Notes under the pieces: model-generated
Databases searched by the model: none
What the model was told of the DNA's origin: nothing
Seen by the model: only the letters and a program-made list of their open reading frames with translations
In this document: piece by piece, positions 43,158 through 49,100 of the stretch
How the letters are laid out: the number at the start of each line of letters is the position of its first letter
Position numbering within the stretch: the first letter of the stretch is position 1
Position numbers and translations under genes: made by a program
Assembly (NCBI GenBank): GCA_030141605.1
Contig: JAQGDQ010000009.1
Location: forward strand, 1,054,001 to 1,118,000
Reading direction: 5' to 3'
From: Tubiluchus corallicola
Taxonomy: Eukaryota > Animalia > Priapulida
DNA length: 64,000 nucleotides

Positions 43158-46100
43158 TTACAATTCAGATTGTTGTTGTCTGTTTGATTTAGAAGACTGA
43201 TTTCTGGCCGGTCCTCGACGGTCTACGTTCTCGTATATTGGTTCAGATGACTCTTTCTGGAATCCTACATTTTGATCTGAAAAAAATCATAACGTGTTTA
43301 AAGTCAATACAAATTTTGGCCCAAACGAAAAAATTAAACAGAGAAAGTGATGTATAAGTTAGAAAAGCAAAACAATTTAATGTGCATATTTGTAGGCTAC
43401 ACTTGGACCTTATTCAGAGGTTAAGCTTAGATCAATTTACTGTGTCATTATGTCATTTTAATGTCCTGTCTTTAGAACACCATTTTATAAAACTGCAAAA
43501 AAGGTTAATGCAAAAGTTAGAATTTGGATGTTTGCGATATGCATCTTGATATGTTCAATATTCAATTAATTAATATCAGAAAAACTAAATGTCAAACACT
43601 GGCAGCCAGGTAATTTAATACACACCATTTCTTTCTACGTACAATTATCACATTAAATGTTAAACATCTATAGTCAAACCTCTAAACCGCCTGCTTTGGG
43701 ACTGCAAAAAAGTTGGTTCTAGGCAAGGTTGGCATTATAATGAGATGCACTAATACATACACGTTTGTGAAAATATAGATATTTTGTTTTGCTAAAAGTG
43801 TTAACCCAGGTTGGTATTATAAAGGGGGGTTATAATGAGGTTTGGTTATATGTTAAGTCACCAGAAGTTTTAAAATAAAGGTATCAATTTATCTATAATT
43901 ATAACACGGTTAAACTTACAAGCATTGCCTTCCAACTCCAAGAGAAAATCTCGTATGCAGTCATGTATGTAGACATACTGATCCTGTAAAAGAAACAAAA
44001 CACCTAATTTTGCTTTAATTTTCCAATACAGCAGATTTTATATCCTCTTTAAATACTTGCACTACCGAGCCTACTACAATTTATGTATATTGCTGAATTA
44101 AAAATTGTCGTCATCTGGTCACATCAGGGTTGGTTTATACAATAATGTGGCCATGTAAGTCAAAACCAAATACCTGGGGGTCATCACTACCAATTAAAAC
44201 ATTCAAATATTAGGTCAAGTTAAAGTCCTTAAGGATCTATAAAAATTATCTAAAATCCTAGCACTACCTGTATAGAATAACTACAAAACAGTAATAAAGA
44301 AAAGCATAAACTACAATGCTTATACCTCAGTTTGTACCATCCAGCACCTGTTCCTTCGCATGTTTAACACCAATGCATAAATATCAATATTTCTGTCAGT
44401 ACGAACTCTCTGCATCAGACAATCCACCGCTATGAACGTTCCACTACGACCGACACCAGCACTGAAAAAACTCATATAGATTAGTAAAAATATGGCAATT
44501 TCAAAAGTTGTAACTGTAGGACTAAGAATCATAACAGCAGTAATTTAATTATTTTTAGACAGCTTTTATGCTTTTATTCATTATAAACAATTTTAATTTT
44601 AGTTTTTTATCTTATAACAAACAACTGAATTTGTAAAACTTAAAAATGGCTGTCATCTTTTGACGCCTTCTGCAAAACGTTTTGCAATCTTATTTCAAAA
44701 CATGAAACACCAAAATTAGAGAACACGATACCCGATTTACACTGGCAAGTTTGTGTCATACCAAGACCAGATTGTCAAAGCCAGCATTTACAGTGGTTAT
44801 GGAGCTTAATTCCTGTCCTATTGTAGCTATTAAATAAGTATACACAATAATGAAAAAAGGCTACAGAATAGAGAAATGCCAAATTTCACCTGTAAAGTCA
44901 AATGTTCTTGGTATGTACTCCTAATGTACTAACAATGCGGTGCAAACAATAGGCTTGGTGCCTGTTTGCACTGTACTCGCGGATAAAGAGATTCTCGACT
45001 CAGAACATTTCGAGTCTAAATCGAGTATTGTGCTTAGCTTTTAATGCACTTTGGCTAAACAGCAACACATTGATTCATTAAAAAAAATAAAAATTAACAG
45101 CATACTACATTTTCAACTTTTGGTAAGAATTATCACTGATTTAGTCACTGTATATTTAATCAAATTAAGGGATTGATAAGTTACAGCTGTAACAATTATA
45201 CACATCAAACACATTTGTACACACAAAACAGTACAAATTAAGCTGAAAAAAGTAATTTATTCTACCTGCAATGAACAACTATTGGCTCTTCATAGTTATG
45301 TGGCAGATGAGTTCTGACAGTTTGCACTAAGTTCAGAAGATGGTCAGTGTGGTCAGGGCAGCCAAAGTCAGGCCATGCAGTGAAATGTATTTGCTTTACC
45401 GAACGGAGCTCGCCTCCCTGCATGGTAGAATAAGTCATAAAAGAGTCGGACATAAACACATGCAGTGAGTGAAGAAGCATTAACTTGATCATTTAAGTGT
45501 GCAAGATTATTAGCAGAAAAGGTTAAAGAATTTTGGTAAAAAAAAGTCAAGACTGTCACAAGGACACGCTGCTTATCTGTATAATACACTATTGGTAAAA
45601 TTAGAAAGTGAAAATCTGCATGAAATCAAGAAGTTTGACAATGAATTTGTAATGTTTTACATTTATGCCACTATTTTGTATATTGCATATTATATCGAAT
45701 TAGTTGCTACATTGTTACACAGCCAGAATTTCTAATAAAATTCCCTTCAAAACTAAGCATACCAGGCAGTCTGGCAGAAGCGAGACAGTGTTACGCTATT
45801 CGTTTGTTAACACTATTTAACTTTACTATATGTTGAATGATTAGTTGTATTACACAGTTAGGCAAAAACCCTTATCCTGGAGTTATCCACACTTTTCCTT
45901 TCCATAATTTGTTTCCCATGTAATCTCAGATTACATTATAAAAACTGTGAATTATGCAGAGATGCAGATTTGCAGGAACAATGATGGTAATGCGATCATC
46001 CAGTAATGTTCAGCTTCATCCAGGGACCACATGAAGTGTATGTTACCTTTGTCTGTTGTCACTTATTACTTAACTAACTGTAAATTCTAGTCATGCATAT

Positions 46101-49100
46101 TATAATGTATTTTAGGTAATAGCATTTCAATTGAATGATTAGTGTTAGGATAACGATGACAGCAATGTCAGTAGTGTTAGTGTAGGTGATTAAAGTTAAT
46201 AGTCATGCACGTGCACTGAAAACACGCATGCAAGCACACAGTACCTGCAGTGCACCAATATCGGACCTGTCATTTCAATGGGACAATGCGTGCGCACTGA
46301 AGTAGCGAAATCTATCATTGCTTTTGTTGTTGTGGGGCAGCCAAAATCTGGCCAGCTGAGAAAATGGAACTGCTTCACTTTTAATGACTGCTCACCCTAT
46401 AGGATTCAGAAAGTATACTATACTACAAGTAATGTTGGATGAACACAACCAGCATAAAAAATACCCAATATCAAGTTCTATCATGTAGAAATTCAGCAAT
46501 AAATAAAATTATCACATTAAACTAATTATTATAGCAACGATTCAATCTTCACTCTGGGCAAATGCACAGAGAATGCCTTCGTTTGGGCAAAATTCTACAT
46601 CATTTCTCAGAAGAAATACTGGATAATACTGTTGTACAGGAACACAATGATAAAGCTTGTATAATTGCACTAAAAGAAAATGGTCATTCCGTATTCATAA
46701 AGTAGTCAAAATACCAACTCCCTACCTATTGTAAGACCCACTAATTTTTGGCACATTGCCAGAACAATTTATTTACTTTCATTAGATCAAGAATATACAG
46801 TCCAATGTATAAAATTAACACTAACTGGGGCAAGTAATAGAAAAAAGTAAAGCAACGCATTACCAATTCAAGAAGGAAGACGCGTATGGTGTGATCATTG
46901 AGCACAGATTCTGATACAGTTTGCACTTTCACATCTCCGTAAAATGACGGATCTGTCGGGTTAGGCCAATACTGTACACATTTAACCTGAAATGATTAAA
47001 CACACAGATAAACATAAAATATGTAGCATAAATTATCGCTAGCAACTGTCCAATTACTTTCATTTGATTAGAAATGACAACATTGCAATGAGAAACAAAA
47101 TCGTTTAATTTATCAAACGATTATGTAAAAAGGTCTAAAATTTTTACTGTTATGAATTAACTGACGATTACAATATTAATTCTGTTTCAAAAATAAATCA
47201 ACTGTGAAGACTTTACCCTCACAGACAAAGAGTGCATGCAAGTTCAGGAAGAAAAATGCTGTGCCCAGATGAATCCATTATTAGTTGTGAATCATAAACA
47301 CGTTATTGGGCACAGCTATGTAAAACAGGTGAACAAACAGCCTATGAACTAGCTCATTAATATTTACATTGATTATGTACATATCAGCAAATTGGATATG
47401 TACCTATAATACAACCCCAGGATGTGGAAATTTGGTACTTGTATAGGCAAAGTCTTTGTAGTAGAAGCGGTATGAAATTAAAGTACTGAGTTTCACAATG
47501 AAAAACACCGTGCAATGTGGTATTTATACTATAGTCAAAGTAGAATGCAATTATCACTTCAGTTCTAAACGTACTAGACCATTATGTCCTTGGCCATTAA
47601 AGCACAAACTCGTATAGCAAAACATGATTTAAAATCTGTTTATTGTTCGACTCGCTCAGATATTTTAAAAACCTGCACATACGTTAACGAATGTAATACA
47701 TTACTTACTCGACCACGTTCATAAACTTGTGTTAACATGACAATCATTTCCACATTTTGTTCCCAGATCATTCTCCAAAAATCGTTTTCCGTTGATTCTA
47801 GTGGACCTTGAGCAGCAATATACTCTCTGGCTGATTTTACGCCCTAAAATTAATTACATGCGAGATAAAATATCGTAAATCATTTTTTAAAACACTTTGC
47901 ATTGCAAGAATAGCTCACAGAGACTTTGAAACTGGTACTACTGATTTTTTGTCCAAGTATGAGGCGTTGCTAATTAACTCCTCCTTGTTATAATAATCAC
48001 CGTTTCGTAGGTACAGACTGTTGTTACTGTCGTCATTGCTGACGTTGCTGTTGTTACTAATGCTGTTTTCCCCTGTCAATGTTGCTGTCGTCGGCGGTAG
48101 TGGTAGAGGTGCTGATAACGTTGTTGCTGCTGCTGCTGTTGATGTTGTTCTTGTTCTTGCTGTTGTTATTATTAATGTTATTATTATGATAGTTATTGTT
48201 GCAGAGAACAGCATAATGCAGTACTAATGTAAATTATGTACTTACAGGCATATAATTGGCATTTATGTAATCTGAAGCTTCATCATCATCAGTTGGTAAA
48301 AGTTTCACTCGAGAATGATCAACTATAAAAGAAATCGTAAAACTTTACACAAAAACAGACTATATGTATATATGCTTGGACTAGGACTTTTACAAAGAAT
48401 GCACTACTTCAGTAATACTTCAGGATTCTAGAAAATGCAATTACTCCCAAAGTCGAAAAAATTTTCAACTAATTTTCTTATTGAAAAGGACCCATGAAAC
48501 ACCTACTGATAAGATCTTATTACTCATATAAAGTATTGTCCTTTATAAATTATCTCTTGTACATGTGGCTTGGCTTCAGCAGTGGCTTAACTGACATTAA
48601 AACTCTTCTAAACAAATGTGCTCATTGTCCCTTAACTAGAGGATCAGGGCGAGCACCATAAGCTTCCTGCGGGATTTGTATAGAGTAAAAGTGCTAATAC
48701 TCTGTTCTACGTACCTCTTTTGAGTTTTACATGTTTCCTGAAAGATTTCCAAATGCTGCGAGAAAAATACTTATGTACATTAAATAAAAACTAGAAATGT
48801 GTCAAGCTTAATAAGTGAAAACACCGACCAATCTACACATTTACACTATAAATCTTAAAATGTGACCAATAGCAAAAATCGAAAAATATAAAATTATAAA
48901 ATGTATTGTGGACTACCTTCCACAAAAGCCCAAGTAACAAAGTCACTCGCACATAACCTTATTGATTTATTGAAATTTTTGAAAAATGTTCAGATGCAAA
49001 TGTTTTTGTCACTTTATATGAAGCCTGAAAGACCTCCAAGAACAACATCAAAGTCAAGTAGAACTGGAAAAGATGTGATCTTCTCCCGTTAATACTAACC

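Follow-up and report, generated by a model that had tools for sequence, protein, structure and literature searches.

The window analysed here is a 64,000-nucleotide (nt) stretch of the priapulid Tubiluchus corallicola (contig JAQGDQ010000009.1, positions 1,054,001 to 1,118,000 of the forward strand). Its minus strand carries a gene for a receptor protein tyrosine phosphatase (PTP) of the R3 type, with 22 coding exons within the window, from 63680 to 43162. Two neighbouring exons, in the order A (46245-46396) then B (45266-45417) on that strand, encode the same portion of the catalytic domain, which begins ahead of the WPD loop, takes in helix alpha3 and the S-loop and closes with the catalytic cysteine. 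Each comprises 152 nt, runs from phase 0 to phase 2 and is bounded by AG and GT. They are separated by an intron of 827 nt (45418-46244), and the introns before A and after B measure 467 and 804 nt. The shared upstream exon (46864-46986, 123 nt) holds the YWP motif and a phase 0 donor, while the shared downstream exon (44326-44461, 136 nt) supplies the remaining P-loop and the start of the Q loop. An earlier note, made from the letters alone, had proposed that A and B are mutually exclusive; the coordinates, lengths, splice sites and phases that it gave all proved correct. We consider it very likely that the two exons are spliced in one at a time and that both are used. For a working mutually exclusive pair with a functional difference of some kind, we estimate a probability of about three in four.

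The gene model comprises 948 residues and reads open with exon A alone or with exon B alone. Eleven ectodomain exons (53610-63680) encode FN3 repeats and a long juxtamembrane domain, the last intron phases being 1:1:2:1:2. They are followed by a transmembrane exon (52034-52166), in which a hydrophobic stretch precedes basic residues, and by four shared exons of 82, 91, 77 and 135 nt (47709-50406) for the first half of the PTP domain with its pTyr loop (KNRF). Downstream of the switched segment, the final two coding exons (43162-43983) encode the stop and, before it, a C-terminal tail in which YENV forms the YxN motif. The gene extends past the right end of the window; its 5′ end lies outside, so other N-terminal domains are possible.

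An intron code of 1:1:2:1:2 and a YxN tail define R3 receptors in Chicote et al. 2017 (PMC5336234), and the gene in the window has both, the code lying in its juxtamembrane region. Furthermore, PF00041 is the sole domain assigned to the first exon and the repeats run along the model. A single membrane span precedes a single PTP domain, and the stop stands 38 residues past the domain's last exon boundary. A lipid phosphatase of the PTPRQ type (WPE, no YxN) was rejected since both exons encode WPD; the ‘PTPRQ-like’ names carried by relatives are automatic labels. The motifs of an active classical PTP (pTyr loop, WPD, HCSAGxGR and Q loop) are intact in either isoform, and both versions of the domain are predicted to be active. 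The juxtamembrane domain also contains RTKR (54196-54185, minus strand), as does that of a neighbouring paralog described below (21951-21970, plus strand); we take this to be a likely furin site.

The reading frame restricts how A and B can be combined. Inclusion of both brings a stop 8 residues into B, 330 nt ahead of the last junction, and when neither is included the stop falls within the next exon, 5 residues from its start and 182 nt ahead of that junction. The frame shift that the earlier note had described for both cases is thus reproduced as early stops in the 22-exon model. By established rules, an early stop at either of these distances from the last junction is a mark of nonsense-mediated decay. 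Because the stops lie so far upstream, double-inclusion and skipping transcripts would be removed by this pathway, which would enforce exclusivity without steric or RNA-pairing devices.

A and B share 24 of 50 residues, the count given previously and obtained again here, and 75 of 152 nt (49%). Different codons are used at 15 of the 24 identical residues, and the introns flanking A and B show no relatedness to each other. Both exons match PF00102 with scores above its Pfam threshold, and the matches span positions 130-176 and 132-176 of that profile. When a profile of 39 related exons was run over the six frames of the window, three copies only were found: A, B and the single exon of the neighbouring paralog. 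Between A and B, synonymous sites are saturated (proportion of synonymous differences, pS, 0.85), and the corresponding nonsynonymous proportion (pN) is 0.42. In neutral simulations (20,000 per level, no indels), an open frame with WPD and HC survived in 0.85% of cases at 0.3 substitutions per site, in 0.065% at 0.5 and in 0 of 20,000 at both 1.0 and 2.0. Despite saturation, A and B have both kept the exact length, the two splice sites and the residues WPD, GCP, R, P and HC. Since synonymous sites are saturated, pN is lower and neutral survivors are practically absent, both copies have long been under selection, which does not prove present use. The exons are neighbours of similar length, in the same frame, similar in sequence and free of stops, in line with the criteria of Hatje et al. 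2017 (PMC5740500). That study requires that there be no exon-joining reads, unless joining shifts the frame; this exception applies because A-B joining does so. It also looks for reads that lead from each exon across the other, and the reads described below give an indirect sign for the upstream-to-B join only.

Relatives of the gene were sought with a profile of A and B. Among 1.84 billion representatives, 3,065 matches were obtained at an expectation value (E) of at most 0.001; the 150 listed ones were examined and 30 clusters were looked up for their organism of origin. Word-based searches with exon A or B alone gave no match, the method being weak by design for this purpose. A search with an oyster domain was dominated by vertebrate two-domain receptors; six bivalve rows of 120 were taken from it, plus two outgroups. 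Among the matches listed, those closest over the shared flanks have F, M or H within WPDxGCP, and these WPDxGCP relatives come from spiders, Limulus, scorpions, sea spiders, myriapods, cephalopods, a gastropod, bivalves and Priapulus. A tree was built from 34 domains and 240 flank columns, with the swapped exon excluded and three duplicate isoform rows dropped. In this tree, the gene in the window lies inside the WPDxGCP lineage (ultrafast bootstrap 87), adjoins Priapulus and its own long-branched paralog (83), and falls outside the arthropod (92) and cephalopod-plus-oyster (95) groups. Judged from these alignments, it is a member of an invertebrate R3 lineage marked by WPDxGCP. The same tree sets the WPDxGCP sequences apart from three WPDFGVP single-domain receptors, a hint of two protostome R3 lineages; PMC5336234 argues for one ancestral protostome R3 gene.

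Oyster members of this lineage seem to switch the same exon. In Saccostrea cucullata, isoforms XP_062589565.1 (X2) and XP_062589564.1 (X1) differ in a single block, which is the exon at the A/B position, and at a second locus XP_062605500.1 (X2) and XP_062605499.1 (X1) differ in this exon only. The Magallana gigas model A0A8W8J3A0 contains both copies in tandem, with type 1 (WPDMGCP) preceding type 2 (WPDMGIP). Type 2 is used in four other Magallana models and in Ostrea edulis, and type 1 in Pinctada and Tegillarca. Of 12,899 domain pairs that agreed in 64 or more of 80 flank residues, 16 fell below 70% identity in the exon at the A/B position, and every one of these paired oyster type 1 with type 2. 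These R3 isoforms (XP_062589564-6, XP_062605499-500, A0A8W8J3A0) have the lineage and the exon boundaries of the Tubiluchus gene, and their two forms are about 45-50% identical. The second oyster form has 52 residues, and the oyster isoforms are predicted models only. On these models, the switch would not be unique to the Tubiluchus genome. No published description of the oyster pair was found in the literature searched. Another exon type, ending in P-x-FKGP (P0020, P0022, P0050 and P0081, two with WND for WPD), groups at 91/78 and may be an alternative copy in other animals.

The intron between A and B is rich in motifs of known splicing regulators. This cluster and the oyster parallel were absent from the earlier note and emerged in the follow-up. 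The RBFOX motif TGCATG occurs seven times in the gene's 22 introns (17,519 nt), and four of these copies lie in the A-B intron, which makes up 4.7% of the intron length (binomial p 1.5e-4; about 1.4e-3 corrected for the nine patterns counted). It ranks top of 681 hexamers there. ACTAAY has 4 of its 19 copies in the same intron (p 0.011). Directly behind A's donor, a cluster (46092-46240, minus strand) comprises TGTGTG at +5, TGCATG at +13, +36 and +148, CTAAC at +65 and +97, and ACTAAY at +64 and +102. A further TGCATG (45459-45464, minus strand) stands 47 nt before B's acceptor, a predicted repressive position, and another lies inside exon B (about 45379-45374, minus strand). The donors of A and B are weak, ranking 2 and 7 from the bottom among 22. 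Beside the paralog's single 152-nt exon, no TGCATG was found.

RBFOX bound downstream of an exon usually promotes it and bound upstream tends to repress it (PMC11874969); here, TGCATG lies downstream of the exon that would be promoted, A, and upstream of the exon that would be repressed, B. We lean slightly towards a scheme in which B is spliced in by default and in which RBFOX, where present (in muscle or neurons) and assisted by STAR/QKI-type and SUP-12/RBM24-type proteins, shifts the choice from B to A. RBFOX just downstream of A would promote A, and RBFOX upstream of and inside B would repress B. TGTGTG as a SUP-12-type site and CTAAC/ACTAAY as STAR-type sites would add to this choice. In C. 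elegans, RBFOX, SUP-12 and ASD-2 choose muscle- or neuron-specific exclusive exons via such motifs (PMC4165533, PMC3585155, PMC3469465). The egl-15 5A/5B, unc-32 7a/7b and let-2 9/10 pairs carry UGCAUG, UGUGUG and CUAAC in flanking introns with tissue-specific choice, and these motifs are common to the window gene. However, the nematode pairs were demonstrated by reporters and mutants, whereas such control of the window gene is predicted from its motifs, which all lie in the between-exon intron in a differing layout.

Several other features of this region were considered. Steric exclusion was rejected, as the A-B intron has 827 nt and its AG-free zone 64 nt. Exclusion by RNA pairing of the Dscam type was rejected as well: the best inverted repeats are 15-32 nt long at 70-93% and none is outstanding. 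A 22-nt likeness (18/22) of 46208-46229, 29 nt past A's donor, to the acceptor of the downstream exon was about chance level and was dropped, although the stretch could act as a decoy acceptor. In oysters, read-through translations upstream of the type 2 exon (P0076, P0292, P0293, P0303) contain several Ala-Trp and Ala-Cys pairs. Since GCATG would give such pairs, RBFOX motifs in the oyster intron as well are a lead to follow.

What would the exchange change in the enzyme? The segment as a whole is swapped, as the earlier note had it, but A and B do not differ in the catalytic Asp and Cys or in GCP, and the changes lie around the catalytic residues. The note had also placed the differences in the helix after the WPD loop and in the following loop. 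Mapped onto PTP1B (alignment range query 4-50 to chain 168-215, plus the anchors W179 and C215), the 26 differing residues fall on the WPD-loop flanks (177-178, 186-187), on alpha3 (189-197) and on the S-loop, in agreement with this. A single-sequence fold of the oyster protein was set aside (mean predicted local distance difference test score 33). In PTP1B, L192, N193, F196 and K197 belong to the allosteric network (PMC6039181), which accords with what the earlier note stated about this helix. A single substitution at T177 shifts both the pH dependence and the balance between open and closed states, and motion of the S-loop accompanies that of the WPD loop (PMC12905499). Different kinetics or regulation of the isoforms is therefore plausible from the residues changed, and one receptor would yield two phosphatase domains distinguished by their loop dynamics, pH profile or allosteric control. 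We find it probable that turnover and regulation are what chiefly sets the two enzymes apart, because the changes lie on the WPD flanks, alpha3 (PTP1B positions 191-197) and the S-loop and because exons common to both isoforms supply the pTyr loop, the Q loop and the remainder of the P-loop. Different substrates appear less likely than different kinetics since the pTyr and Q loops are shared. The Cys184 of the WPD loop (in GCP) is present in 27 of 28 reference exons; oyster type 2 has Ile there and exon A has an extra S-loop Cys, and a redox difference between the isoforms is conceivable.

An alternative that accepts exclusive use holds that the two domains are nearly equal and that the second copy is kept for splicing-coupled dose control or as a binding surface, not for catalysis. 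A and B do have every catalytic motif in common, most of their residues are also found in single-exon relatives, and both mis-spliced forms carry the early stops given above, as dose control would have it. Yet more than half of the compared residues differ, and A and oyster type 2 leave the consensus at alpha3 positions 191, 193 and 195, in a helix tied to WPD-loop motion. Moreover, dose control by decay would not require a second coding exon under amino-acid constraint. We regard this alternative as unlikely.

The read evidence bears on whether both exons are used. Two sets were compared: X1 is a DNA-like run, possibly from the sample behind the window, and X2 is RNA by guess only, no run being on record as RNA. 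X2 covers 6 of 30 bins, is patchy and differs from the window by 5-9%. One of its contigs (153 nt) matches the 135-nt exon edge to edge. Another (169 nt) matches 45273-45418, that is exon B, with 7 differences and 23 unmatched letters. This match ends one base past B's acceptor, and G is the last letter of the upstream exon. A longer match would be expected from genomic DNA or from A joined to B, so the end point fits a spliced upstream-to-B junction, provided that the record runs in the gene's direction.

An RNA-like cover on B only is what one would expect if A were a silent pseudoexon and B alone were spliced in. Exon A also has the longer branch (0.98 against 0.56 for B) and is further from the consensus helix. 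However, the two shared flanking exons are blank in X2 as well, so that the missing cover on A carries no information about that exon. Length, splice sites and the conserved residues of A are intact despite saturated synonymous sites, the motif cluster stands directly behind A's donor, and oyster relatives have models with each copy. A silent exon A is accordingly quite improbable. It is more improbable still that misassembly, or a fragment of a different gene or haplotype, accounts for the two copies: the window does hold recent duplications (29751-30450 again at 31605-32169, 94% identical) and a close paralog, but A and B are only half identical in DNA with unrelated introns, the paralog's exon is a third, different sequence, X1 depth is present in 30 of 30 bins, and an X1 contig of 389 nt joins most of A to its upstream intron (46261-46649, 2 differences, no gap). 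This contig argues against assembly error only, X1 possibly being the window's source sample.

Exclusive use of two functionally different exons has also to be weighed against a series of contrary points. No joint has been reported for A or for B in the reads, and X2 has no cover on A. Saturation shows past selection, and a recently silenced copy would look alike. Two forms occur in just 3 of the 11 multi-member clusters that cover the exon, all three from oysters. A single form was found in Octopus (three isoforms), Limulus, two spiders, Babylonia, Potamilus, Centruroides and one further pair, absence of a second form from annotation being weak evidence. The oyster isoforms are predicted, as stated, and the two Saccostrea loci may be haplotypes. 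As to regulation, every intron has a best hexamer at p 1e-3 to 1e-7, so that the TGCATG result rests on the motif being a known one (1 of 9 counted patterns). The copy at +13 might also block A's donor. Finally, upstream repression by RBFOX is less consistent than downstream activation (PMC11874969). The mutually exclusive use claimed at the outset thus draws indirect support from frame logic, selection and the oyster isoforms, but no junction has been seen for A.

The exon tree (39 rows, 50 columns) does not separate shared ancestry from convergence for the pairs of Tubiluchus and oysters. It places oyster types 1 and 2 in separate supported groups, type 2 near a Potamilus exon (92/90), and leaves A and B unplaced. 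A is nearer to Octopus (30/50), and B to Pycnogonum (33/50), than the two exons are to one another (24/50). None of six constrained groupings was rejected (approximately unbiased test, p-AU 0.32-0.42). In residue pattern, B and type 1 are alike in having the consensus helix L191, N193 and V195 (PTP1B numbering) and LPHN; these three residues are present in 25, 19 and 21 of 28 reference exons, respectively. A and type 2 both have F174 and M191, lack Asn193 and carry a small residue at 195; in alpha3 of exon A, the residues at 191, 193 and 195 are M191, D193 and A195. By this pattern, the order is reversed: A comes first in the window, and the A-like type 2 comes second in Magallana. These patterns could result from separate duplications that changed in parallel or from one old duplication that was later reordered. 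A broader proposal would be that an RBFOX-driven switch of the whole catalytic core evolved repeatedly, or once before the major protostome split. It would offer two forms, one with the consensus residues L191, N193 and V195 and one derived, with M191, without Asn193 and with a small residue at 195, in which the allosteric helix alpha3 is rewired. Muscle or nerve cells would thereby set speed and regulation, and these allosteric positions would have changed in parallel in oysters and Tubiluchus. We put this forward tentatively and hold it to be rather doubtful.

The remainder of the window contains an inverted paralog of the receptor (17-31450, plus strand), which is not part of the switch and has one 152-nt exon (30396-30547) at the A/B position. 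It faces the phosphatase gene tail to tail. The ectodomain exons of the two are 69-97% identical, highest farthest from the membrane, which suggests gene conversion. Its PTP domain is degenerate, with YVD for WPD, HCSSGSGR and no YxN seen. The pair looks like two receptors that are the same outside, one of them with a weak or dead phosphatase inside. A decayed second exon was searched for in the paralog's introns and not found (best E 2.7). The duplication of 29751-30450 at 31605-32169 comprises a paralog intron and the first third of the WPD exon, and the copy lies after the paralog's last PTP exon; it may be either a small-scale example of how an exon copy originates or an assembly duplicate. 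Between the two phosphatase genes lies an intronless gene for a 352-residue rhodopsin-family G-protein-coupled receptor (35584-36642, minus strand; PF00001, E 2.6e-33). A fragment at 24354-24717 resembles a Tigger/pogo-type transposase DNA-binding region, and related repeats occur at 28350-29130 and 52365-53076.

Exclusive exons in enzyme domains are known. The case of a PTP catalytic exon is present in oyster database models and was not found in print. The earlier note named no such case for R3 PTPs, and we likewise found no exclusive WPD-to-Cys exon of a PTP in the literature searched, most subscription papers lying outside the search, or in two human catalogues. A Drosophila catalogue of mutually exclusive exons, reportedly by Hatje and Kollmar in 2013, could bear on the novelty. 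The human catalogue table of Martinez Gomez et al. 2021 (PMC8373072) has no PTP entry, with the controls MAPK8, FYN and KHK present. The supplements of Lam et al. 2021 (PMC7954323) show none in the part available, which may lack the main table and for which no positive control was run. Hatje et al. 2017 (PMC5740500, supplement file 3) list receptor PTP genes with candidate exclusive exons, as in the window gene, but none of the seven PTPR rows is a WPD-to-Cys exon. These rows concern PTPRS FN3 exons, PTPRN2 N-terminal pieces and one PTPRM phosphatase exon, whose intronic candidate is without its motifs. The R3 receptors of Chicote et al. 2017 share with the window gene the FN3 ectodomain, one span, one PTP domain, the YxN tail and the 1:1:2:1:2 code; in the text available (PMC5336234), alternative splicing is not mentioned, and its available sequence files contain no WPDxGCP sequence.

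The closest parallels are enzymes in which equal-length, in-frame tandem exons swap a stretch of the catalytic domain: human MAPK8, FYN and KHK (PMC8373072), as well as PKM and nine catalytic-site events (PMC7954323). In the window gene, by contrast, the exon that would be exchanged encodes the general acid together with the nucleophile of a classical tyrosine phosphatase. If our reading is true, tyrosine phosphatases would join the enzymes whose active-site exon is chosen by exclusive splicing, beside the kinases that they oppose. The choice would likely be made by tissue, and the versions are predicted to differ in speed or regulation. How much of PTP rate, pH profile and allostery is set by the WPD loop, alpha3 and S-loop, and how much by the scaffold, is the question addressed by engineered PTP1B/YopH chimeras, in which the WPD-loop region is swapped on a fixed scaffold, as in the window gene (PMC12905499). 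Such chimeras are often unstable, with four soluble in the series reviewed there. In contrast, the Tubiluchus and oyster genes would represent natural swaps of the WPD-to-Cys segment on an identical scaffold, taking in alpha3 and the S-loop and kept by selection in at least two distant animals.

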